Assembly: GCA_016839365.1 (NCBI GenBank)
Contig: JAEOUH010000020.1
Location: 1 to 48,653, forward strand
Length of the DNA stretch: 48,653 nucleotides
Direction of reading: 5' to 3'
DNA from: Candidatus Hermodarchaeota archaeon
Lineage (GTDB): Archaea > Asgardarchaeota > Hermodarchaeia > Hermodarchaeales > Hermodarchaeaceae
Part shown: one piece after another, positions 10,733 to 27,248 of the stretch
Position numbering within the stretch: the stretch's first letter is position 1
Layout: every line of letters starts with the position of its first letter
Translations under genes and position numbers: made by a program
The notes under the pieces: generated by a model
What the model was told of the DNA's origin: nothing
Databases searched by the model: none
Seen by the model: the letters and a program-made list of their open reading frames with translations, nothing else

Positions 10733-11236
10733 ATGTCCTATGAAAAAGAAGTCCGTGACCATCGGAAAACACTCGAAAAACTTCTTGAGGATACCGCCAA
10801 AACTTTAGAAAGCCCACCAAATGTTATCGCACAAAACAACCTGATTGTTCTGAAATCAATCCTTGAAAAAGCCCTCATGGTGGCGGACGAAGCTCTCCGT
10901 GCGGTAAATCTCCAACCTATTGAAGTCGAAGAAGTTCTTGATCGCTTTTCCCAAAACTCCGATCAATACGGCACAAACCCGGCATTGGACGAGGTAGATG
11001 CCATGAAACGCGAAATAGAACGCTTGTCTCGAGCGGTAGACATCTTACAAGCCATGCGAAAACGCCGGGAACTATCTCATCGACTCGTCGGGCATGATCC
11101 ACGGCTTATGGGCCCTTGGGCGCGATGGATTCGCACCCTGGAAGGATATAAGATCAATCAAGACCTTAGCCCGAAACACCGGGAAAACCTCTTGGCAGAC
11201 ATCGATGAATGGCGCACTATCTTGGCTGGCACCTAA
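10733..11236 (+). CDS. Hypothetical alpha-helical/coiled-coil protein
   Basis: 167-aa ORF filling the gap before a tRNA, AGGT RBS, heptad-like composition. Confidence 0.7.
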   Translation: MSYEKEVRDHRKTLEKLLEDTAKTLESPPNVIAQNNLIVLKSILEKALMVADEALRAVNLQPIEVEEVLDRFSQNSDQYGTNPALDEVDAMKREIERLSRAVDILQAMRKRRELSHRLVGHDPRLMGPWARWIRTLEGYKINQDLSPKHRENLLADIDEWRTILAGT

Positions 11237-12676: not shown

Positions 12677-14107
12677 TTGTATAGGATGGCGTTAGCCTTG
12701 GCTAAGTACTTACTCATTGACTCAAAAGGTGTTGAAAAGCCGCTTGACTTAGACAATTTGGATAGCCATGAAGCTATCCACGGGGAACTTCGCACCTTCA
12801 TTGAGACAGAAGAACTTGGCCGACCAGCAAAAGGGGAACCTCCTCATATTCGAATTATGCGCCAACTGGAACTCATCGATTACGAACCCGCTTCTGATGT
12901 AGGCCATTTCAAGTTCTTCCCCAAGGGTTCTTTATTGAAAGAACTGATGGAAGATTATGTGACCGAAATTGCTGTTGAATTGATTGGTGCAATGCGCATT
13001 GAAACCCCTCTGATGTACCGGATCAGCCAAAAAGATATTGCAGAACAAGCAGAGAAGTTCCTTGAGAAAGATTATCGCATTAAACTCAGCAAAGACAAAG
13101 AACTGCTTCTCCGTTTCGCAGGAGACTTTGGCCTATTTTCCACAATGAAAAACGTACAGATGTCTCAACGACAGCTCCCCATTCGGGTCTTTGAATTATC
13201 ACCTTCGTTTCGGCTAGAGAAGCGAGGTGAATGCGTGGGACTCCGACGCCTTCGAGCCTTCACGATGCCTGACATTCATTGTTTCTGTGCCAATTATGAA
13301 CAAGGCAAAGAGGACTTTGCCATGATCACGAAAAACTATGATATTCTAATTCGTGGTCTTGGAATCAACTACATCCTCGTCTTCCGTGTCGTCGAAGAAT
13401 TTTATGACCAGACTAAGGATCTCTTACTGAGTCTTGCAGAGGACTTGAAACGTCCAATCCTAGTTGAACTTCTTCCTGAGATGAGCCACTACTGGAACGT
13501 GAAAAACGAATTCCAATTTGTTGATGCAGCAGAAGGCTCAGGGCAATTGAGTACTGTCCAGCTTGACGTTAGCGATGCAGAACGTTATGGTATCACCTAC
13601 ACCAATGAGGCGGGTGAAGAGGTAGGCTGCATCATCGTTCATACCAGTATCGGTAGCCTAGAACGACTCATTTATGGACTTCTAGAGAGCGCTGCCAAAC
13701 GCCAACAAGAAGGCCACCTTCCAATGCTTCCAGTCTGGCTTTCACCAGTACAAGTACTCGTTATACCAGTTGCGGATCGACACAAAGAACATGCAGAAAA
13801 AACTGCAGATAAATTACGTGCTCACAACGTGCGTGCGGTAATTGATGATCGAGGAAAAACCGTGGGGTGGAAGGTTCGTAATGCGGGACAACAATGGGTA
13901 CCCTTTGTCGCCGTAATCGGAGACAAAGAAATGAAGGCCGCTAAATTACCTGTCACTATTCGTGAGAAATCAGTAACAAAAAATACAACGGTTGAATCAC
14001 TTACTCCTTCAGCCTTAGCGAAAATTATCAATGAAGCAAGTAAAGGCAAACCTTTCCGACAGCTGACCCTACCTAAGCATATGTCTATGTGGCCTATTTT
14101 CATTTAA
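12677..14107 (+). CDS. thrS: Threonyl-tRNA synthetase, catalytic plus anticodon-binding domains only (no N-terminal editing domain)
   Basis: EPPH, SDVGHFKFFPKG, LRFAGDFG, SFRLEKRGEC.GL.RLRAFTMPDIH, QLSTVQ, HTSIGSLER, LPVWLSPVQ. Confidence 0.93.
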   Translation: MYRMALALAKYLLIDSKGVEKPLDLDNLDSHEAIHGELRTFIETEELGRPAKGEPPHIRIMRQLELIDYEPASDVGHFKFFPKGSLLKELMEDYVTEIAVELIGAMRIETPLMYRISQKDIAEQAEKFLEKDYRIKLSKDKELLLRFAGDFGLFSTMKNVQMSQRQLPIRVFELSPSFRLEKRGECVGLRRLRAFTMPDIHCFCANYEQGKEDFAMITKNYDILIRGLGINYILVFRVVEEFYDQTKDLLLSLAEDLKRPILVELLPEMSHYWNVKNEFQFVDAAEGSGQLSTVQLDVSDAERYGITYTNEAGEEVGCIIVHTSIGSLERLIYGLLESAAKRQQEGHLPMLPVWLSPVQVLVIPVADRHKEHAEKTADKLRAHNVRAVIDDRGKTVGWKVRNAGQQWVPFVAVIGDKEMKAAKLPVTIREKSVTKNTTVESLTPSALAKIINEASKGKPFRQLTLPKHMSMWPIFI

Positions 14108-15633: not shown

Positions 15634-16449
15634 ATGACGACATTATGGGAGGTTATCTCACAAGTGCGTAAACTTGCACCAGCAATGTATGTACCAGAAA
15701 ATGATATTGATGGTGTATTTCTTGGGGTGAGTGATGAAGCAAAGCAGAAACGCATTCGTGTGTCTGCTGTAGACGTTTGTGTAGACATCACATTGCCTGT
15801 AATCGTTCGAGCAGGTGAGCATAAAGCCAGTCTCTTAATTGCGCATAGATCTCCCTTTGTATCCATTATACGTAGTTTCACAGGATTACCTCAACTCCTA
15901 CTTGAGCATTTATTGAAGCGGAAGATCACCGTCTACATCGCCCATTACAACTGGGCTATGGTAGAGGGGGGCATGAATGATGTCTTGGCGTATACTCTCG
16001 GCTTCAAGGTCAATGATGTGTTTCGGGTTCCGCTTCTAGGTGGTAATTATCCTCTTGGACGTACCTGCAGCGTTCCTGAAGAGACAAATTTGAAAACCTT
16101 TATCCAATATGTGTCTAAGCGGCTGAAAGTTCCGTCAATAGATTATGTGGGAAATCTGGACGACGAAGTGGAACGGTTGGTAATCGTTAGTGGAAAAGGG
16201 ATAACTCCTGAGTGGCTACATCTCGCTTGGGTGCAGGGATATGACACATATCTTACTGGTCATATCACTCATGAGCTGGCAACGCAGGCGAGTCAACTCA
16301 AAATCAAACTCGTTGCCGTGCCTCAGCTTACCACCGAAATCCCTGGAATGAGTAGGCTAACTCAGATACTACAGGTCGAATGTCCCCAAGTTACATTTAA
16401 TTTCATTGAACCTACTTTCTCTTACTCCACACTACTCACACAGCCTTAA
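15634..16449 (+). CDS. Nif3/YbgI-like protein with degenerate metal ligands
   Basis: D.DG, CVDIT, LLIAHR, IAHYNW..GGMNDVLA, LGR, YLTGH, TE.PG match the Nif3 pattern. Confidence 0.8.
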   Translation: MTTLWEVISQVRKLAPAMYVPENDIDGVFLGVSDEAKQKRIRVSAVDVCVDITLPVIVRAGEHKASLLIAHRSPFVSIIRSFTGLPQLLLEHLLKRKITVYIAHYNWAMVEGGMNDVLAYTLGFKVNDVFRVPLLGGNYPLGRTCSVPEETNLKTFIQYVSKRLKVPSIDYVGNLDDEVERLVIVSGKGITPEWLHLAWVQGYDTYLTGHITHELATQASQLKIKLVAVPQLTTEIPGMSRLTQILQVECPQVTFNFIEPTFSYSTLLTQP

Positions 16450-16482
16450 TGTGTTTAACTTGTCGAGGAGTTCTGAAAAGCC

Positions 16483-17505
16483 ATGAACAATCCGCTAATT
16501 GTCGATTTAGGAACAGGATTTCTCAAGTATGGCTATCCTCAACAAACCACACCCCATATCATGCCTGCTTATCTCAGAAGCGAAAGGGCTTCCCAAGGCG
16601 ATTCGTATCTCCTTATGCTTGATCCCACACGTTTAAGGAAATTCTTTCCCATGGAAAATGGAAACCTTCCCGATAGCGAAGTGTTGAAACCATTGATGCT
16701 TGATGTCTTTGACCGGATGGCAATTGGGGGATACCAACGGGTAGCAACAGAGCTTCAACTCCTTGTTTTCTCCACAGTTGATCAGAACCGCATCTATGAT
16801 GTGTGTGATAAACTCAGGGAGGATCTCGGCTGTCGGAAGCTTCTTGCAGCCTATCAACAAGTACTCACCCTCTTGTTCCTTGGAAAGCACACGGGAATGG
16901 TTATTGATATTGGTCATACAATTTCAATAGCCACGCCTATATACCAAGGCTTTTTGTTGAGAGAGCTTGTTGAAGATACGGCTGCGGGAAGTCTCTATGT
17001 CACAGCAGCGTTACGCCGAATGTTCGAGGAAAAAGCGAAAGAATCTACGAAATATTCGGATTATGCAAAAATCGCCACTGACATGAAAGCAATAGAATAC
17101 ATCAAACGGAACTTCTGTCAAGTCCGCCCAAATCCCCGCGACAAAAAGGTCCCGAGAGAATGGCAATACCGGCGGAAGGACATCAATGTCTCTTTGGGGG
17201 AAGTCCCATGGAAAGCGACAGAAGTTCTCTTCGATCCATCACTCATTGGGATTGGTGACAAAGGGCTCATCGATGCAGTAGTTGATTCAATTGAACAGGC
17301 GGATATCACTATTCGCCGGGAATTATCAAATGATATAATTCTTAGTGGGGGCGGATCACTGTTTCTTGGGCTTCGAGAGCGGTTTGAACATGAATTGAAA
17401 AAGCGTCTACCCCACCTCCCCGTCAATTGCTACGCATTAGAGGATGCATTGACGAATGCCTGGTCGGGTGCTGCAGCCCTGCACAGGTCACCTGAAAAGG
17501 GCTAA
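16483..17505 (+). CDS. Actin-related protein A (divergent eukaryotic-type actin family)
   Basis: LIVDLGTGFLKYG, FPMENG, YQQVLTL, TGMVIDIG..TPIYQG, EVLFDPSLIG, IILSGGGSLFLGL.ER, AWSGA match actin DNGSG..KAG, YPIEHG, IQAVLSL, DSGDG..PIYEG, EALFQPS, LSGG, WIGG. Confidence 0.9.
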   Translation: MNNPLIVDLGTGFLKYGYPQQTTPHIMPAYLRSERASQGDSYLLMLDPTRLRKFFPMENGNLPDSEVLKPLMLDVFDRMAIGGYQRVATELQLLVFSTVDQNRIYDVCDKLREDLGCRKLLAAYQQVLTLLFLGKHTGMVIDIGHTISIATPIYQGFLLRELVEDTAAGSLYVTAALRRMFEEKAKESTKYSDYAKIATDMKAIEYIKRNFCQVRPNPRDKKVPREWQYRRKDINVSLGEVPWKATEVLFDPSLIGIGDKGLIDAVVDSIEQADITIRRELSNDIILSGGGSLFLGLRERFEHELKKRLPHLPVNCYALEDALTNAWSGAAALHRSPEKG

Positions 17506-17619
17506 TCTACGCTAGACTTAAGCTTCTCTAGGTTCTATTTGTCAAATTATTCACATAAAGCCGTCAATCATGCCTTGGGAATAGAAACTGTTTTCAAACA
17601 TGCTTCCAACACTTCACTT

Positions 17620-18639
17620 GTGAAAGATACCCAAGCCAACCTCATCATTGACCTGGGTAGTGGCTACATGAAATGTGGGTTCTCCGAGCAACCGGAGCCC
17701 ATAGTCATTCCTGCTGCTTTCAAGAATCCCAAACCAGGCAATGATAGGTCGATATTCAGCGATTTTGATCCAGGGCGCCGCGCTTGGGTGTTTCCTCTCG
17801 AAAATGGGTTACTCCCCCAAGATACATCTCAGCTGATTCACCTATGTAATCTCGCATTAGAGCAGTTCCCCATGATGAACAAGCAGCGCGAGAAACTCCA
17901 ACTAACACTATTGCTATTTCCTCAGGTAAAAACCGAACAGGTAACCGCGATATGTAAGGAGTTGCAAGAAGCGCTCGGGTGCCTACATGTTGAGGCTGCG
18001 ATTCAACAAATCTTGACATGGGGCTGCTGGGGACGAAAAACCGGACTGATAGTCGATATCGGATATACAATCACGTTTGTCACTCCGATTTATCGGGGAT
18101 TTCTATTGGAAGAGGAGATTCTTCCATTGGTTACCGGTAGTTTCTTCGTATCCGCAGAAATCCGAAAACTCCTCCTCCACAAAGTCGAGACATCACCGGC
18201 TGAGCTTACCTCATACTACAATCGGCTTGCAACAAATGGAAGTGCAATACGCTCCATTAAACAATCACATTGTCAAGTATTTCCTATGGCCGTAGACGAT
18301 GTCTTCGAAGATAACATCGATTTCGCCTTTAAAGGGGTTAACCTACCACTTGGTCCTCTTCCTTGGCAAGCCCCAGAGGTATTGTTTCAACCGACACTTC
18401 TTGGAGTTGGAGACAAAGGCTTAACTGAGGCAGTTATAGATGTATTACAAGGAGTAGATCCTACAGTGCGCGCTGAACTAGCCTCAAATATCGTCTTCGC
18501 AGGCGGAGGGTCCATGATACCCGGTCTAGCGACCCGCTTAGAAACGGATATCAAATCCCATATTCCTCACCTAACTGTCAAGGTTTATGACCTTGAATAT
18601 CCACTCTACAGTAGTTGGCTAGGCGCCGCAAAAATGTAA
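17620..18639 (+). CDS. Actin-related protein B (paralog of the upstream gene); start probably GTG 17620, ORF open from 17539
   Basis: LIIDLGSGYMKCGF, FPLENG, AIQQIL, TGLIVDIG..TPIYRG, PEVLFQPTLLG, ELASNIVFAGGGSMIPGL..RL, SWLGA. Confidence 0.9.
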   Translation: MKDTQANLIIDLGSGYMKCGFSEQPEPIVIPAAFKNPKPGNDRSIFSDFDPGRRAWVFPLENGLLPQDTSQLIHLCNLALEQFPMMNKQREKLQLTLLLFPQVKTEQVTAICKELQEALGCLHVEAAIQQILTWGCWGRKTGLIVDIGYTITFVTPIYRGFLLEEEILPLVTGSFFVSAEIRKLLLHKVETSPAELTSYYNRLATNGSAIRSIKQSHCQVFPMAVDDVFEDNIDFAFKGVNLPLGPLPWQAPEVLFQPTLLGVGDKGLTEAVIDVLQGVDPTVRAELASNIVFAGGGSMIPGLATRLETDIKSHIPHLTVKVYDLEYPLYSSWLGAAKM

Positions 18640-18652
18640 AGAAGGAAAGACT

Positions 18653-19042
18653 ATGACGGACACTGTTACCGTGAAAGAAGCCATTGCAAAAGTCGAAAAG
18701 GGGCTTGATGAACTCGGGGAACAACTCAAAGCTACTCAATCATCAATTGAGCAGCTTGGACAAAATCTTTCAGCACAGATGGAGCAAACAGCGAAACAAG
18801 CAAATATGGCTGCAGAAGAGATTCACCGTGATGTAACCACTTTCCGCGAACAACGTCAACTGGTCGAAACCCAGCTTCTTGCCGAGGTGGAACGAGCCAA
18901 AGAACTCAGCAACCTCAAGGATATTGAAGAAGCTATTCGAGTTATTATTGAAATCGTCGATGAATTGACGAATCGCATTAATCTTGATGATGTCCTCCAA
19001 GCAGTAAAAGAATTCGAGGCTTCGAGGAAACAAGGAAAATAA
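18653..19042 (+). CDS. Coiled-coil hypothetical protein
   Basis: 129 aa, continuous heptad pattern, 13 nt downstream of actin-related gene B. Confidence 0.75.
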   Translation: MTDTVTVKEAIAKVEKGLDELGEQLKATQSSIEQLGQNLSAQMEQTAKQANMAAEEIHRDVTTFREQRQLVETQLLAEVERAKELSNLKDIEEAIRVIIEIVDELTNRINLDDVLQAVKEFEASRKQGK

Positions 19043-19059
19043 AAAAGGTGTATACACAT

Positions 19060-19503
19060 ATGACTGAACAACCTCCACCTCCACCTGCACCTCCTTCAGA
19101 CCAACCTGCTGCAGGTGATGAATCCCTTATTCCCTTTGTGACCCAAGCATTCAACAATCTTTTCACTAGATTGGGTACCCTTACTCAAGAAGTGTCTAAC
19201 CTTAAGGAAACAATCAATCACATTGATCAACTCGTCAAAGCCCGCTTAGAAACAATTGAGCCACAATTTCAGGAGCTCTTGTCAAATCTCCGCGAACAAC
19301 GACGCAGTAGTGTTACCCACTATTCCCAGCTTGCAGCTACTATTGCACAAGGCTTTGAATCACTCGGTGATTTAAGAACCTCTTCTGCAGATGCACAAGC
19401 CTTAGAATTACTTACTGAAACTTTACAAGCTGCACAAGACGCTTTATACTGCTTACGCATTGAACGTCTTGTCCGGCGCTATCTTGAGCTACAAAAGAAA
19501 TAA
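19060..19503 (+). CDS. Coiled-coil protein with N-terminal polyproline tract
   Basis: AGGTG RBS then ATG 19060; MTEQPPPPPAPPS followed by heptad repeats. Confidence 0.75.
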   Translation: MTEQPPPPPAPPSDQPAAGDESLIPFVTQAFNNLFTRLGTLTQEVSNLKETINHIDQLVKARLETIEPQFQELLSNLREQRRSSVTHYSQLAATIAQGFESLGDLRTSSADAQALELLTETLQAAQDALYCLRIERLVRRYLELQKK

Positions 19504-19508
19504 TGCCA

Positions 19509-20060
19509 CTAGACCTTTCCGGGTTTCTTCTTCAAACCATACTTCTCACGCATTTTTTCGCGCCAGGGTTGGTCTGTGCCGCTAGTTTCGGCATACGCAT
19601 CCGCGGCTGGTTGGGGGCTAGTTGCTGCTTCTGTGGCTTTAGATGGAGTAGTAACTGGCGCTGGTTCTTTGGTCTCTAATGTTCTTGGTGAGGGTGAATT
19701 GATTATAGTCCGTGGAGTAAATCCTTGTCCTGTTTCAAGGCGTGAGAGGACCTCAGTAATTGTAAACATCTGCATTCGTTTGTCCAACTCACTAATAGCT
19801 CGCATCATCATGCGGTTGAGTTCTTGGGGTTCTGACTTGCTTAGCTCTGTGAGTTTCTTGCTTAGTGAGTCGATGCGATTGTTTAGATTTGCGATGTTAT
19901 CTTTGAGCACACCTACAGCATCTAGTTGCCGGCGAATACTCTCCAGATCCTTTGAGATATGCTGCTCGACTTCACTGATTCGGTTTAACGTTCTTTCGAG
20001 GATTTCAGTCATTTGTCGGAAGACATCATCCATTTGGGCTTCTCTGAATTCAGACATCAC
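19509..20060 (-). CDS. Coiled-coil protein with Pro/Thr/Ala linker and basic C-terminal helix
   Basis: ~105-aa heptad region, low-complexity linker, C-terminus QPWREKMREKYGLKKKPGKV. Confidence 0.75.
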   Translation of the reverse strand: MMSEFREAQMDDVFRQMTEILERTLNRISEVEQHISKDLESIRRQLDAVGVLKDNIANLNNRIDSLSKKLTELSKSEPQELNRMMMRAISELDKRMQMFTITEVLSRLETGQGFTPRTIINSPSPRTLETKEPAPVTTPSKATEAATSPQPAADAYAETSGTDQPWREKMREKYGLKKKPGKV

Positions 20061-20121: not shown

Positions 20122-21162
20122 ATGCCATTTTCTGTGAATAATTCAGTGACAATTTCAGAAGGTCAAAGTCAGAAACTGGGTCACCTTTTAGAACAATTAC
20201 AGCCCCAAACCGAAGACTTCTTGGATCCTCGCCTTTTTCCATCACAAAAATATGACCCTACAGATGTTGCTAATTTCTTCTTTTTCGTCACGGGAATAGA
20301 TCACCGTACTAGCCCTCCGAACCAAAGCTTTGAAGGAACCGTAGAAGGTAATTATTTTCAAGGCGCTGACCTCTTATGGCATTTGAGCCTACGAAAATTC
20401 ACAGAAAACCCGCGGTTTTTTCACCCTTCTTCCATGGCTCAAATTACGACGGCCACGGTAAGAGACTGGTACACCGTCATGTCTCCTAAACGCGTTACAA
20501 TTAGAGATCCTCAAGAACGGGCTACATTACTCCGAAACTGCGCAAAACTACTCTTAGAGAATTATGCGGGGTCAACCCTCTTCTTAATAGAACACGCAAA
20601 GAATCGGGTAACGCCTGACCCTGAGACGAATAGAGCAGGGCTGTTACAATTACTGACTCAGTTCAAAGCGTACCAGGATCCTGCTCACAAGAAAAGCTAT
20701 CTGTTACTAAAATTCCTTCTTCGCCGTGATCTTTGGTCGGTAATTGATCTGGATTTAGTTCGAATTCCGGTGGATAATCATCTGACCCGAATTGCACTTC
20801 GGGTGGGCATCGTTTCTGTGTCACTAAACCTTGCTCATCAGCTTCGAATGCAGAAACCGGTTTCATCGGATACCGATGTAGTTCTACGCTCAACAATCGC
20901 AGACGCATACTCGCTAGTTGGCCAATACGCTAAGCGCTCTGTGCTTGAGCTCGATGATTTTTTCTGGCATTTCGGTCGCCAATGTTGTCTTACAGTTAAT
21001 CCAATCTGTGTCACAGGATGCACGATGGACTGCTTTGTGGTCGAGCAATTGTTGGCTGCCTCCTGTCAAGGAACCTGTCCGCTTACTGATGTCTGTCTTG
21101 CCTCAACTGATGACATGCAACGGGCCTTAATTGAACCAAAAATCAAAACCTGGTATTATTAA
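20122..21162 (+). CDS. Conserved hypothetical protein, HhH-GPD/queuosine-salvage glycosylase-like fold with C-terminal Cys cluster
   Basis: AYQDP..KK, IPVDNHLTRIALRVG, LDDFFWHFGRQCC...PIC plus further Cys (EndoIII-like FeS tail). Confidence 0.55.
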   Translation: MPFSVNNSVTISEGQSQKLGHLLEQLQPQTEDFLDPRLFPSQKYDPTDVANFFFFVTGIDHRTSPPNQSFEGTVEGNYFQGADLLWHLSLRKFTENPRFFHPSSMAQITTATVRDWYTVMSPKRVTIRDPQERATLLRNCAKLLLENYAGSTLFLIEHAKNRVTPDPETNRAGLLQLLTQFKAYQDPAHKKSYLLLKFLLRRDLWSVIDLDLVRIPVDNHLTRIALRVGIVSVSLNLAHQLRMQKPVSSDTDVVLRSTIADAYSLVGQYAKRSVLELDDFFWHFGRQCCLTVNPICVTGCTMDCFVVEQLLAASCQGTCPLTDVCLASTDDMQRALIEPKIKTWYY

Positions 21163-21167
21163 CCCTG

Positions 21168-22913
21168 CTAGGCTTTAGGCTTGTACTTGTATTTTCCCAC
21201 GAAGCTTTCTCGACTCATCATGGTCGGCAATGCCCAGGTAACTACCGTACCATTCATCGTGTCACGGAGAGCAGGTTCAGGTGTTCCTGATGGAACACCA
21301 ACATATTCGAAGTTTGGGGGAATTAAATCTTGCAGCTCTGGATCCTGTAAACTTGTTTCTCCATCATTGACAAAGGTAACTGTAACTAGCAGTTCACCTG
21401 CTTCGGTCGTTGGAGCGACCGTTCTAGTCTTGCGGAGTTTTCGAACCACCGATCGAACCTTGATAAGAGGTGCCATTGATTCGGGTACCTCAGTAGTAGC
21501 CTTGGGTCCTGGGGGATAGGTGTTGGCTTCGATTGTTACGGGAAGTCGGTGCTCTTGGTTTGGCTTCGGTGTTCGGGCAATTGAGATGTAGTTGACGGTC
21601 ACTGTGTCACCAGGTTTAATTGGTGAGTGATTTTCTATCAGGTCATGAAGCAGAATCTGGAGAGTATGGGGTAACTTTGGATCGCGGTCTTTGGGACGAA
21701 TATCGACCTTGAGGGTACGAGTCACTGGTTTGTCGGCAATCCGCACTCGAATTTGGGTGTTATCTGGAGGCTCGAAGCCAGGTGGAAGGGAGTCGATGAA
21801 TGTGATTTCGTCACAGTCTATGGTTCCTGTGTTTCTTCCTTGTAGAGTGATGGCTACAGGTGCAGGCTCCCATGCCAGTAACTCAAGCGGTTCAACTCGT
21901 TTCTTTCCTTCAATACGAAGCACCGGAAATATATTCTCAGCTTTTTCAATGGTTCCGATAATTTCTTGGTGTAAGGGTGCCTCGACGGTGGAGAGGGCAA
22001 TGACATCAAATTCGGGTTGCTCAGCGCGAACTTCAAGTTCATGTCCCCAGACTTCGCCTGGGTCCAGGCGGAGATCAGGGGATCCTTCATATAATAACTC
22101 GTTTTCTGGAGCCGTCAAAACCACTTGAACCCGTTTAAGGCGAAGAGGAAATTCACTGGTGTTGGTCAGCGTAGCTTTACATCGCCAAAATCCCACTCTC
22201 AAAGGATTCTCCTCCTTCTCGACGCTCACTTCAGTTTCTGTTGACCCATGGAGTGTAGGATTAAGTGTGCTCCGAACGACATCAGCTATCCGGTAGGTGG
22301 CACGTACTTTTCCACCCGATTTTGGCTCCGTATCTTCGGCTGTTATAGTTGCGCGAATCCGTTGAATGGCAACACCTTCCGAAGGTAATTCTTTGATTTG
22401 CCACACGATTTGACCAGCTTTCGAATCGTACTCCGCCTTGCCTATTTGTGACTGTTGAATCTTAATATCCCGAAAAATTGGGGGAATCTCTTTGGTCACT
22501 ACAATGTCATTAATTCTTGCTCCTGAATGGTTTCGAAGGTTCAGGCTGATTTCAACGGGCATCTTATACTCATACACTAACGCGTTATTCACACCCACCC
22601 GTTCATAAAAGGTGTCGAGTGATTCTGAGAGGAGCAGCATGGGCGATTCAATTTCTTTGACGATAAAGTCTTTCTCCCATTCGGTCATCGGATTTAGTCG
22701 TCCGATATCAAGTGTATCTGCTCCAAGAGTAGTGCGATTTTGTCGATTGAGTTCCAGTTCTGCATCCCACACCGCGTGTTTCCGAGAATTGTTCTTCACA
22801 ATCACTTGGCCGCGGGGATCGAATCGAGAAATGGTGTTATCCGCCGTTAATCGAGTATGTTCATGTTCCTTAATGGAGATAGTTAACCCTGCTGGAGTCT
22901 GTGCCGAAGCCAA
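21168..22913 (-). CDS. Cytosolic multi-beta-sandwich protein with N-terminal adaptin mu-homology (MHD)-like domain
   Basis: ISIKEHEHTRL...RGQVIVKN and IVVTKEIPP...GKAEYDSKAGQIVWQIKELP resemble AP-mu/delta-COP strands; later Ig-like repeats (N.G...D.LPP.F); no signal peptide or TM. Confidence 0.6.
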   Translation of the reverse strand: MASAQTPAGLTISIKEHEHTRLTADNTISRFDPRGQVIVKNNSRKHAVWDAELELNRQNRTTLGADTLDIGRLNPMTEWEKDFIVKEIESPMLLLSESLDTFYERVGVNNALVYEYKMPVEISLNLRNHSGARINDIVVTKEIPPIFRDIKIQQSQIGKAEYDSKAGQIVWQIKELPSEGVAIQRIRATITAEDTEPKSGGKVRATYRIADVVRSTLNPTLHGSTETEVSVEKEENPLRVGFWRCKATLTNTSEFPLRLKRVQVVLTAPENELLYEGSPDLRLDPGEVWGHELEVRAEQPEFDVIALSTVEAPLHQEIIGTIEKAENIFPVLRIEGKKRVEPLELLAWEPAPVAITLQGRNTGTIDCDEITFIDSLPPGFEPPDNTQIRVRIADKPVTRTLKVDIRPKDRDPKLPHTLQILLHDLIENHSPIKPGDTVTVNYISIARTPKPNQEHRLPVTIEANTYPPGPKATTEVPESMAPLIKVRSVVRKLRKTRTVAPTTEAGELLVTVTFVNDGETSLQDPELQDLIPPNFEYVGVPSGTPEPALRDTMNGTVVTWALPTMMSRESFVGKYKYKPKA

Positions 22914-23516: not shown

Positions 23517-26500
23517 GTGCGGAAGCGATATTACGTGCCATCAAATCTGTCCTCATGGATGGGCTCATCAGAACCAAATCCCAAAACAAAGGAACAGTCG
23601 AAGCCAAAGAAGAATCGGCTCTCACTATTAACCCAGATCATTGCCCAAAGCAAAGATCAGCCCATTCGCCCGTCCGAATATCCCCATACCCCAGAGTCGG
23701 GACCTCCAGGTGTTCTAATCAACATTGACTATCAAGGAAGCGTAGGGGCTGCCAAACTCAAACTCTATGATATTACTAAAAGCCAAATCTATGAGTGGGT
23801 GGATAACACCGGACATCAACCATATTGCCTAACGGATTTATCCCAAGAGGATCTCTCACAACAAAATGATGTTGTTGGCCACTCGGGATTCCTGAAATTC
23901 GAGGAGGGGCTCAAATATAATTTATTACACGATTCAGAGGAACAATACACCATCATCATTGCAAAAGATCCTTTAGCAATTGGTGGACGCCCTGACTCCA
24001 TCCGAGAAAAAATTGGAAGAGACCATGCCTGGGAGGCAGACATCCGGTACACGCAATGCTATACAATGGACCGAGCCCTGACACCAGGCCTTCTGTATCA
24101 GGTTCAAAAGGGTCGACTAGTTTCCGTTCCTCAGGAATTTTCGACTGAAGACGCCACCAAGATTCGTGGATTATTCAAAGACGACAAGGAGCTCTCTAAG
24201 CTCATTGAAGAGTATCTTCCCCTTTTTCTGACTCCTGCCTCGTCGTTACCTCGACTTGCTATTGATATCGAAGTAGAATCGGAATTCATCGATCGAATAC
24301 CTGATCCGGAGCAAGCGCCACAACCAATCATTTCCGTAGCAGTCGTGGATGATACAGGTGTTGGTAGAGTATTACTGCTGGAGCAAGGCTCGCAGGGACG
24401 TGAAGCAAGGAATCTTCCCGACACCGTGACCGTCGAGAAATTTGATAATGAAAAATCCCTCGTTGAAACGGTCTTTCGAATTCTATGGCGTACCCCAATT
24501 CTATTGACCTTCAATGGGGATAACTTTGACCTTCGATACCTTGTCAATCGAGCAAAGAAACTCGGTATCCCCCCTGCTGACAATCCTGTTCGCTTACGAG
24601 GTGGCTTCCGCGGCAATCCCGAAGCAGAACTCGAATATGGCGTCCACATCGACCTCTATCGATTCCTTCATAATCGGTCCATTCAAATCTATGCCTTTCG
24701 GAATCGGTACAGCGAAGTTCGCCTTGAAACGGTCAGCCAAGCCCTCCTCGGAGAAGGAAAGTTACCACTCCCCGACGAGATTAATAAAATCCCTGCCCAC
24801 TTACTCGCTCAATACAATTGGCAAGATGCAAGCCTAACCATGCGCCTCTCAACGTTTGATGATGACCTCATCATGAGCCTCATCCTCCTGCTCATGCGAA
24901 TATCCCATCAAGGCATGCACGACCTCACCCGCACCGCCGTATCCAACTGGATTCGCAGCCTCCTCTACTACGCCCACCGACAACGCAACTACCTCATCCC
25001 ACGCCAAGACGAAATCGCAAGCTTGAAAGGCGAAGCCGTCACCGAAGCCATCATCAAAGGCAAAAAATACATGGGCGCCATCGTCGTCGAACCCAAAGAA
25101 GGCGTCCACTTCAATGTCACCCTTGTTGACTTTGCCTCACTCTATCCCAGTATCATGAAAGCATACAACCTCAGCTACGAAACTGTACGCTGCGATCATC
25201 CTGAATGCAAAGGCAATCTGGTTCCTGGCACACCCCATTGGGTTTGCACTCGCAGGCAAGGAATTACCAGTCTTATCATTGGGCTAATACGTGATGTTCG
25301 TGTTGAGCACTTCAAATTAAGAGCAAAGGACAAAACACTCCCCCCTGAACAAAGAAGCTGGTTCAGCGTAGTCGAGCAAGCACTCAAAGTATTTTTGAAT
25401 GCGCAGTATGGCGTGCTAGGCGCCAGTCATTTTCCCTTATATTGTGCCCCTGCAGCTGAATGTTATTCAGATGATACTGAGATTTTGACAGAAAATGGAT
25501 GGAAATTGTTTAAGGATTTACTTCCGAATGAAAAAGTTGCCACACTAGGAAAACGTGGTGAATTAGTTTATGAGCAACCGCAAAAGCATATTGCAGAATA
25601 CTATTCAGGAACTATGTTTTCTCAAGTCAGTAGTAACATCGATTTGTTGGTAACACCTAACCATAGAATGTATATTGGATGGCGGGGGAAAAATAATTAC
25701 AAGCAGGTTATCAGATGGGGCTTTAGAACTCCTTTAGATATGCCACGATATGTGAAATATAAAAGAAATGCTGAATGGACGGGCAAGGAGCAAGAGTGGT
25801 TTATTCTTCCTCCTGTGATGAAAAAGAAACTTGCCGGAATAAAAATTAATACGCGAGATAGAAAGGGGCGAATTGTTGAATCTGAACATCAATTCGAGGA
25901 AGTTGTAGAAAAACCAATCAGAATCTCGATGGATGATTGGCTAAGGTTTTTTGGCATCTGGCTAGCCGAGGGTTGTTCTACTGGAGGAAATTCGCAAGAA
26001 TACAAAGTTATAATCACGCAATCAAATGTTGAAAAAAGAGCGAAAATCAAGAAATGGTTAGCGAGGCTGCCATTTGATTTTAAGGATTACGGAAAAAATC
26101 TGACAGTCCATAATAAACAACTATATTCATATCTTGAACAATTTCATCAGAGTTATGATAAGTATATTCCAAGAGATTTGCTAAATCTGTCTCCACGACA
26201 ATTACGAATTCTATTCGAATCCATGATGCTCGGAGATGGTTGGAGAGGGAGATGCTATGGCACTGCGTCAAAAGCCTTGGCTGATAACTTTCAAGAACTT
26301 GTACTAAAAATGGGATATGCCTCTACAATTACTAATTCTAAAAACTTCAATAGTATTTACATTTCATATCAAATGCTACAACCAATGCAGAATAAGGGGA
26401 TCGATCATAGATCCTGGGTTGAGTATGATGGAATGGTCTATTGTGTCGATGTTAAGAATCATCTTGTTTATGTTAGACGAAATGGGAAAGCATGCTGGTC

Positions 26501-27248
26501 GGGTAATAGTGTAACAGCTCTTGGTCGTTACGCAATTACCCAGACAATCGAAAAGGCTGAGGAGATAGGAGCTACGGTGATTTATGGAGATACAGATAGC
26601 CTGTTTTTAGATAATCCCACCAAGGATCAGTTGAGGCAACTCATCGATTATAGTGAAAAGAAATTACGAGTGGAGTTGGACATTGAAAAGGAGTACCGGT
26701 TTGTTGCATTGTCTAGTCGAAAGAAGAATTATTTGGGTGTGTCAAAGGACGGTCAAGTTGACATTAAGGGCTTGACGGGTAAGAAACGGAATACGCCTCT
26801 ATTTTTACAGGAGGCATTTATGGAGATGATAGATATCCTAAGTCAGGTTCGTGACCCTGATGGTTTCACCTCTGCGAAAAAACGGATCCTTCAACTTGCC
26901 CGGGATAAGTTAACGATGCTGGATCGCCGAGAATTTGATGTGGAAGATCTAGCAATTCGAGTCCAACTAACGAAGAATCTCAGCGCCTACACCAAAACTA
27001 CTCCCCAACATGTTAAGGCAGCTACGCAGCTCCAAAAAGCCGGAAAAGAAGTGACAGCTGGAGACATCATCGCTTTTGTCAAAACGACCGACGGCGTGAA
27101 GCCTGTTGAGCAGGCTACCGTCCAAGATATTGATGTATCAAAATACAAAGACCTGGTGAAGAGTACCTTTGAACAGGTCCTTGATGCCTTAGGCATTGAA
27201 TGGTTGGATACTATAGGAATGCGTAGGCTGGATACCTTTTTCGGCTAA
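23517..27248 (+). CDS. polB1: Family B DNA polymerase (archaeal PolB1/Dpo1 type) containing an intein
   Basis: Exo motifs AIDIEV, FNGDNFD, YNWQD; pol motifs DFASLYPS, KVFLNAQYG, YGDTDS, KKNYLG; B1-type C.HPEC...HWVC insert; C-terminal PIP-like RRLDTFF. Confidence 0.93.
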   Translation: MRKRYYVPSNLSSWMGSSEPNPKTKEQSKPKKNRLSLLTQIIAQSKDQPIRPSEYPHTPESGPPGVLINIDYQGSVGAAKLKLYDITKSQIYEWVDNTGHQPYCLTDLSQEDLSQQNDVVGHSGFLKFEEGLKYNLLHDSEEQYTIIIAKDPLAIGGRPDSIREKIGRDHAWEADIRYTQCYTMDRALTPGLLYQVQKGRLVSVPQEFSTEDATKIRGLFKDDKELSKLIEEYLPLFLTPASSLPRLAIDIEVESEFIDRIPDPEQAPQPIISVAVVDDTGVGRVLLLEQGSQGREARNLPDTVTVEKFDNEKSLVETVFRILWRTPILLTFNGDNFDLRYLVNRAKKLGIPPADNPVRLRGGFRGNPEAELEYGVHIDLYRFLHNRSIQIYAFRNRYSEVRLETVSQALLGEGKLPLPDEINKIPAHLLAQYNWQDASLTMRLSTFDDDLIMSLILLLMRISHQGMHDLTRTAVSNWIRSLLYYAHRQRNYLIPRQDEIASLKGEAVTEAIIKGKKYMGAIVVEPKEGVHFNVTLVDFASLYPSIMKAYNLSYETVRCDHPECKGNLVPGTPHWVCTRRQGITSLIIGLIRDVRVEHFKLRAKDKTLPPEQRSWFSVVEQALKVFLNAQYGVLGASHFPLYCAPAAECYSDDTEILTENGWKLFKDLLPNEKVATLGKRGELVYEQPQKHIAEYYSGTMFSQVSSNIDLLVTPNHRMYIGWRGKNNYKQVIRWGFRTPLDMPRYVKYKRNAEWTGKEQEWFILPPVMKKKLAGIKINTRDRKGRIVESEHQFEEVVEKPIRISMDDWLRFFGIWLAEGCSTGGNSQEYKVIITQSNVEKRAKIKKWLARLPFDFKDYGKNLTVHNKQLYSYLEQFHQSYDKYIPRDLLNLSPRQLRILFESMMLGDGWRGRCYGTASKALADNFQELVLKMGYASTITNSKNFNSIYISYQMLQPMQNKGIDHRSWVEYDGMVYCVDVKNHLVYVRRNGKACWSGNSVTALGRYAITQTIEKAEEIGATVIYGDTDSLFLDNPTKDQLRQLIDYSEKKLRVELDIEKEYRFVALSSRKKNYLGVSKDGQVDIKGLTGKKRNTPLFLQEAFMEMIDILSQVRDPDGFTSAKKRILQLARDKLTMLDRREFDVEDLAIRVQLTKNLSAYTKTTPQHVKAATQLQKAGKEVTAGDIIAFVKTTDGVKPVEQATVQDIDVSKYKDLVKSTFEQVLDALGIEWLDTIGMRRLDTFFG
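25461..26507 (+). mobile_element. Intein (349 aa) with LAGLIDADG homing endonuclease in PolB1
   Basis: Starts CYSDDTEILTENGW, block B LLVTPNH, FFGIWLAEG and MMLGDG endonuclease blocks, ends VRRNGKACWSGN then Ser+1; splits AAE|SVTALGR; visibly AT-richer than flanks. Confidence 0.95.

Follow-up and report, generated by a model that had tools for sequence, protein, structure and literature searches.

A truncated actin-related protein family confined to Hermodarchaeia, and its possible recruitment onto an older Asgard helical module

In a contig of a Candidatus Hermodarchaeota archaeon (JAEOUH010000020.1, assembly GCA_016839365.1), analysed here as a window of 48,653 nucleotides (nt), positions 15634-19503 carry two adjacent genes for actin-related proteins (ARPs), arpA and arpB, followed by genes for small helical proteins. 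ArpA and ArpB belong to one actin-related family that is confined to Hermodarchaeia, bears deletions of its own, evolves under purifying selection, and occurs as a single copy in some lineages. As to its role, we tentatively favour the reading that a non-polymerising, nucleotide-binding ARP was recruited in Hermodarchaeia onto an older helical bundle, either paralogue being sufficient and the binding itself being predicted. The features of the locus, whose five plus-strand open reading frames (ORFs) and short intergenic gaps are present as an earlier sequence-only reading of this DNA had claimed, are as follows (aa, amino acids).

15634..16449, plus strand: nif3, a Nif3/DUF34-family gene (Pfam E=1e-35), the sole tblastn Nif3 match in the genome
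16483..17505, plus strand: arpA, Hermodarchaeia-specific truncated actin-related protein of 340 aa, 33 nt 3′ of nif3
17583..17598, plus strand: element AGAAACTGTTTTCAAA, resembling a B recognition element (BRE) and TATA box, a putative promoter ending 21 nt 5′ of the arpB GTG
17620..18639, plus strand: arpB, second paralogue, 339 aa from the GTG, ending at the equivalent of actin residue 346
18653..19042, plus strand: cc129, all-helical, member 1 of the Asgard helical trio
19060..19503, plus strand: cc147, member 2 of the trio, with a lineage-specific proline-rich N-terminus
19509..20057, minus strand: cc183, member 3 of the trio, with a helical N-terminal half, a variable linker and a conserved C-terminal peptide

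Both proteins matched the Pfam Actin profile (PF00022), with 120 bits for ArpA and 112 bits for ArpB against a gathering cut-off of 27, and the AlphaFold2 model of ArpB (pLDDT 82) superposed on actin residues 4-346 (VIA Z 30.5, root-mean-square deviation 3.5, 309 aligned). ArpA and ArpB share 39% identity; against actins, Arp1-like proteins, Arp2 and Lokiactins the figure is 20-27%, and against the canonical Lokiactin that the same genome encodes separately, together with a profilin and gelsolins, it is 25-27%. When the two sequences were mapped on actin, the residue-level changes that had been proposed for them were all recovered. The span from D11 to G74, which includes the DNase-binding loop (D-loop), comprises 52 residues in the ARPs compared with 63 in fungal actin and 65 in Lokiactin; phosphate-2 reads DIGHT or DIGYT; H73 is replaced by N, and H161 by I or F; Q137 and GG301-302 are retained in both proteins; and W340 is followed by 13 and 6 residues instead of 34-35, the segment beyond ~346-353 being absent. 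The ARP family as a whole keeps phosphate-1, phosphate-2, Q137, K213 and the adenosine glycines almost without variation; it has replacements at D157, E214, R177, H73 and H161, and the proline-rich 108-113 motif is missing. The family differs from Lokiactin and conventional actin in falling outside the Lokiactin clade and in lacking the full D-loop, H73, H161 and the C-terminal segment.

Conservation among 21 family members was compared over the actin surfaces. At the nucleotide site, the family consensus equals Lokiactin at 10/11 phosphate/adenosine positions, with a mean conservation of 0.98. On the pointed face, 13/31 positions of subdomain 2 are deleted (conservation 0.54), as are 4/7 positions of loop 241-247 (0.41), and segment 199-208 has a conservation of 0.45. 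On the opposite face, the corresponding values are 0.85 for the W-loop (165-172), 0.72 for segment 283-294 and 0.78 for the hydrophobic plug; the subdomain-3 part of the barbed face is conserved, and its subdomain-1 C-terminal part is deleted, with residues 347-375 and Y143 lost. Given that the pointed-end surfaces and C-terminal segment have been deleted or vary within the family, in agreement with the loss of filament interfaces that had been proposed, actin-type self-polymerisation of these ARPs appears unlikely. The same comparison with established actin structure suggests that the proteins bind nucleotide and hydrolyse it slowly or not at all.

The range of the family was determined by a profile search of 400 Asgard genomes. 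At E<=1e-50, matches were found in 19/19 genomes of the Hermodarchaeia family and in 0/381 others; moreover, in a search of 1.8 billion representatives, scores fell sharply below the Hermodarchaeia members. Both copies are present in 15/15 genomes of the genus, adjacent wherever the contig permits, while the sister genus (g2) has one ARP in 4/4 genomes (the locus being contiguous in 3). Two metagenomic loci contain the pair, and two more (L148 and L150) contain one gene. In a tree of 40 rows (LG+G4; 22 long or redundant rows omitted; three Arp2 rows, and no Arp3, Arp11 or crenactin), all Hermodarchaeia ARPs formed one clade with a support of 100/100 and a long stem, which no other sampled actin-family row joined, and a quick version of the tree agreed on this clade. 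The tandem duplication that had been proposed is supported. The single genes of L148 and L150 grouped with B (95/82 and 98/96), and the g2 gene, which sits in the A position behind nif3, grouped weakly with A (85/56). An old duplication followed by reciprocal loss is the simplest reading; it replaced a genus-level duplication, which fits the tree and the gene positions less well, though the support for g2 with A is weak. The double-actin fusions that followed next in the ranking of the profile search were discarded as a clue to fusion, since 9/10 of those looked up were eukaryotic tandem actins whose scores were probably summed over two domains. Another C-terminally truncated actin-like protein (P0043, L173:127-1113, 328 aa), with an even larger subdomain-2 deletion, was found on a 1.2-kb metagenomic contig and lies outside the Hermodarchaeia clade.

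Ratios of nonsynonymous to synonymous substitution rates (dN/dS) against a congener were 0.09 for arpA, 0.15 for arpB, 0.055 for cc129 and 0.03 for cc147, the last being the lowest among seven genes compared. All tested genes were under purifying selection, and the low values (0.03-0.15) argue against a chance set of ORFs. The start of arpB is probably the GTG at 17620, 114 nt 3′ of arpA; the TTG at 17539 was disfavoured because several orthologues have upstream stops. The core of the BRE/TATA-like element was found 5′ of all 16/16 B-type genes listed, ~20-23 nt before the GTG. Judged by archaeal promoter geometry, the element may be the promoter of a leaderless arpB, and its conserved position suggests that arpB-cc129-cc147 (with gaps of 13 nt and 17 nt) is a transcription unit of its own, separate from nif3-arpA. 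The operon formerly proposed for the whole group thus probably holds for one ARP, ArpB, with two helical genes, but not for arpA. In addition, cc183, convergent with these genes and overlooked when the helical partners were counted as cc129 and cc147, is preceded on the opposite strand by a separate conserved element.

The nearness of the B-type copy to cc129 recurs wherever the junction is assembled (within about 20 nt). The genes nif3, arp and cc129 overlap one another in L148, and 21 nt separate arp from cc129 in L150. In one congener, L042, an insertion of ~1.4 kb (L042:9383-10859) parts arpA from arpB, yet the closeness of arpB to cc129 is kept; L044, L047 and L049 carry inserts of similar size elsewhere in the block, and all of these are possibly mobile elements. 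As regards nif3, the suspected alteration was confirmed, the metal-ligand pair HH being HR in 15/16 relatives; other ligand changes were judged against what we take to be the YbgI ligands.

The helical genes were found to be far more widespread than the ARPs. The cc147 family occurs in 124/400 Asgard genomes, in trios or pairs and with up to three copies in some genomes; its profile gave no match in several Asgard families (e.g., f4 0/31 and f23 0/22), possibly a limit of sensitivity. Trio clusters were seen in Baldr-, Jord/Freya-, Hel-, Odin- and Loki-type genomes (lineage names taken from match labels and partly inferred), and P. syntrophicum has homologues of the trio family (QEE14311.1). 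The helical proteins are thus not the ARPs' "own" partners, as had been supposed, but a set that is older, spans the Asgard archaea and in most cases has no ARP with it. In cc147, one helix is predicted at 23-102 and another at 108-146. Its proline-rich N-terminus is lineage-specific and the sister genus lacks the tract, so that the description of a polyproline protein applies here but not family-wide. Pfam, PDB profile searches, Foldseek and ESM Atlas returned for the trio only generic helical matches or unnamed Asgard clusters: weak coiled-coil matches comprised BLOC1_2 in 6/16 rows (best E 0.0035), Syntaxin in 5/16 and SKA1 in 4/16, and Foldseek gave nothing at E<=0.001. Profiles of dynactin subunits had no significant match to cc129 or cc147, and no annotation was found for the trio. 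The tail of cc183 combines an amphipathic helix with an LKK-type spacing that is WH2-like, a pattern drawn post hoc and present near the C-terminus of 4/2100 genome ORFs; in g2 the motif becomes LKE, and it coincides in part with a more general Asgard tail of the K/R-P-S-x-L/F-F type. Pfam WH2 gave no listed match for seven cc183 tails in a search that left most matches above E ~0.1 unreported, and the assignment as a WH2 domain was set aside as a weak lead. Tails in L095, L096 and L135 contain LKK(T/A) or LKPV motifs.

Several neighbours of the trio outside Hermodarchaeia were recorded. In Helarchaeales-type loci, a roadblock-like gene and a fusion with an Arf-type GTPase are among them: at L095:10276-13671, L135:5953-8050 and L137:1759-10276 the trio adjoins a roadblock-like gene and a gene of 620-670 aa, the latter with an Arf-type GTPase domain in L095 (E=2e-19). 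The DNA polymerase gene polB also flanks the trio in the Helarchaeales-type loci L095, L096, L135 and L137, and in L137 a Lokiactin gene lies just past polB, on the far side from the trio. In Baldr- and Jord/Freya-type loci (L086:8801-9469, L093:10981-11688), an unannotated gene of 220-235 aa lies upstream of cc129; by eye it looks like roadblock plus winged helix, with no significant Pfam match.

Published proteome and co-immunoprecipitation (co-IP) data for L. ossiferum (10.1101/2025.11.30.690169, Suppl. Table 2) were consulted for a pair of the cc129/cc147 type (UYP45556.1 / NEF87_001841 and its neighbour) that has no adjoining cc183. Three lines of evidence, namely accession offset, gene order and the masses for the two genes that follow (33.35 vs 33.33 kDa and 38.34 vs 38.32 kDa), identify the pair as GNAMCCOK_01858 and 01859. 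The two proteins are abundant at near-equal levels (mean log2 19.7 and 19.5, about the top tenth of detected proteins by table position) and co-vary with r=0.84, compared with <=0.77 for nine comparators that include the downstream neighbour; this fits a 1:1 complex, the comparator set being small. The TPR-like gene 3′ of the pair (L178:6335-7204, 289 aa, GNAMCCOK_01860) had a Lokiactin co-IP log2 of 1.03 with an adjusted p of 0.029, a marginal value that may be background.

Taken together, these data suggest the following order of events. ArpA and ArpB would have lost the surfaces for self-polymerisation and kept the phosphate-binding loops. The three helical proteins would form an older heteromeric bundle common to many Asgard classes, onto which an ARP would have been recruited in Hermodarchaeia as a globular subunit; in the present genus that ARP would be ArpB, probably co-transcribed with cc129 and cc147. 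Its most likely output would be that of a one-sided, Arp11-like subunit, whose conserved subdomain-3 face may dock on an actin-type partner, for example the pointed end of Lokiactin, and whose missing pointed face would halt further growth and so cap or anchor the filament. This last step, for which surface conservation is the sole evidence, is the weakest, and we regard capping or anchoring of Lokiactin as doubtful. At most equally likely is the fuller proposal of an actin-regulating machine evolved independently in Hermodarchaeia, in which a one-sided ARP (in one or two copies) on an ancient heterotrimeric bundle, with the cc183 tail as a WH2-like arm, would cap, anchor or nucleate Lokiactin at its pointed end. 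A prediction of the complex of ArpB with cc129, cc147 and cc183 scored 0.00 in a run that had no controls, and it was weighed neither way.

The recruitment reading is favoured by the close spacing (13 and 17 nt) downstream of the conserved BRE/TATA-like element, the overlap in L148 and the 21 nt in L150, and also by the near-invariant nucleotide site, the contrast between the two faces of the ARP, the mutual profile similarity and clustering of the trio, the co-variation of the L. ossiferum pair, and the Lokiactin, profilin and gelsolins of the genome. A number of observations weigh against it. In g2, the single ARP lies 109-280 nt from cc129, and a promoter-like element precedes cc129. The block from ABCE1 to polB, comprising ~17 unrelated genes, is collinear throughout the family; conserved synteny, which had been predicted, was borne out in the family and in the metagenomic loci, but within the family it carries little weight for this reason. 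An ARP was directly adjacent to the trio in 0/33 non-Hermodarchaeia loci examined, so the trio does not need one, and trio loci often adjoin roadblock-like or GTPase genes. The three helical genes look paralogous, at moderate confidence, from their mutual profile similarity (HHalign 95%, 87% and 63%), but coiled-coil profiles can match by composition alone. Because the L. ossiferum pair was not among the enriched Lokiactin co-IP rows listed (sorted by ratio, down to <log2 0.6), there is no clear sign of actin binding by the helical module in that species. Finally, a true pointed-end cap should keep the cleft that receives the D-loop, which the loss of 347-375 and Y143 has partly removed, and conservation of the W-loop and plug may serve folding alone.

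Several of these points would suit an ARP that works independently of the trio, as a monomeric nucleotide-binding regulator or as a subunit of some other complex, and that merely came to lie upstream of the trio in the Hermodarchaeia ancestor, within a stretch of chromosome of frozen gene order. The trio occurs elsewhere without an ARP, the ~17 unrelated genes are collinear, ARP and cc129 seem separately promoted in g2, and the Loki pair was not enriched with Lokiactin. However, in three other lineages the genes lie close together or overlap, and the B-type copy stays close to cc129 even in L042 with its 1.4-kb insert. Positional coincidence ranks close behind recruitment, as the less likely of the two.

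It is improbable, in our judgement, that the ARPs build a filament of their own through non-actin contacts, with the trio as an adaptor. In favour are the conserved Q137, phosphate loops and plug, and the diverse filament types formed by prokaryotic actin-like proteins (PMC12050087); but the longitudinal-contact surfaces are the least conserved in the family (0.41-0.54), and H161 and R177 are lost.

Slightly less probable still is the obligate ArpA-ArpB heterodimer of the sequence-only reading, which would mimic an actin nucleus and nucleate Lokiactin as a convergent Arp2/3-like module. Purifying selection maintains both copies throughout the genus (15/15 genomes) and at two more distant loci, and the duplication looks old. 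Nevertheless, single-copy loci exist in g2 (4/4 genomes), L148 and L150, and the old duplication with reciprocal loss therefore disfavours an obligate dimer; arpA and arpB also seem separately transcribed, and the same interfaces are missing from both copies, so neither complements the other. The Arp2/3-like identity that had been suggested, with ArpA and ArpB as orthologues of eukaryotic Arp2 and Arp3, is very unlikely, and for Arp2 effectively refuted: Arp2 is among the upper PDB sequence matches of ArpA (84 bits) and likewise has N at position 73, but Arp1 and actin outscore it, no Arp3 appears in the top 60 PDB matches of either protein, the Hermodarchaeia ARPs form one clade, and approximately unbiased (AU) tests reject grouping of ArpA with Arp2 (p=4e-7) and of ArpB with Arp2 (p=2e-52).

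The locus offers a handful of short proteins (the one or two ARPs and the helical trio, plus the Lokiactin of the genome) for asking whether an archaeal ARP is a non-polymerising subunit. Since the ARP clade is restricted to one class, what it would demonstrate is convergence and not Arp2/3 ancestry. The larger lead is the helical trio, which is widespread, strongly conserved and highly expressed in cultured L. ossiferum. If the proposal of an actin-regulating machine were true, a system analogous to dynactin/Arp11 or Arp2/3 would exist in prokaryotes, and the helical module that many Asgard classes share would gain its first known role.

Other genes near the locus were also noted. On the minus strand, 21168-22913 encodes a protein of 581 aa with DUF11 matches and a weak mu-homology match (Adap_comp_sub E=3e-6) that falls short of the cut-off; it is possibly coat-adaptor-like and lies two genes from the trio across the family. 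A Queuosine-salvage-family gene (20122-21162, plus strand, E=6e-7) is divergent from cc183 over a 64-nt gap. Also on the plus strand are a family-B DNA polymerase (23517-27248), carrying an insert (about residues 650-995) that relatives lack or have in a different form and that is an intein according to Pfam matches in a homologue; a 167-aa helical-looking protein (10733-11236) with no significant Pfam match, 67-93% conserved across the family; and a threonyl-tRNA-synthetase-like protein of ~476 aa (12677-14107) with catalytic and anticodon domains (Pfam, homologues), apparently lacking the N-terminal editing domain.

Asgard actin regulators known so far are mainly profilins and gelsolins (PMC13716822), and divergent Asgard ARPs are already known as a class, being patchy, lineage-specific paralogues beside the conserved Lokiactin (PMC9834061). 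In the literature searched, no paper gave divergent Asgard ARPs a function, and nothing was found on the Hermodarchaeia clade, its truncations or the helical trio. ArpA and ArpB have in common with Lokiactin and the divergent Asgard ARPs the actin fold and phosphate loops; compared with Lokiactin, they lack part of subdomain 2, loop 241-246, the proline-rich 108-113 motif, H73, H161 and the residues past ~346-353. Arp11 has a subdomain-2 deletion, a degraded pointed face and a better conserved opposite face, and has been inferred to be non-polymerising (PMC2174220). ArpA and ArpB display a similar asymmetry between faces; however, Arp11 keeps its C-terminus and has insertions, whereas they lose the C-terminal segment. 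The likeness of the trio to dynactin lies in outline only, in the presence of helical partners; with no homology to dynactin subunits detected, it is an analogy and not membership. As in Arp2/3, two divergent actin paralogues occur in one cell beside a proline-rich protein, but ArpA and ArpB are each other's close relatives and single-copy lineages exist; ARPC2-5 subunits gave no match in the 84%-complete genome, in a search whose controls contained no true member. Nuclear ARP modules (Arp7/Arp9, and actin/Arp4 on the helicase-SANT-associated (HSA) helix) consist of non-polymerising ARPs arranged on long helices, which resembles the arrangement proposed here for ARP and trio. They differ in that the present locus has no HSA or remodeller ATPase, its phosphate loops are near-invariant and its ARP pair is not obligatory. 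In the crenarchaeal Arcade cluster (crenactin and arcadins), an archaeal actin-family gene is accompanied by small partner genes, one of which ends in a short basic/helical peptide. The function of arcadin-2 is covered elsewhere (PMC12050087). Compared by description only, that cluster resembles the present locus in joining an actin-family gene to small partner genes, and differs from it in that crenactin polymerises.

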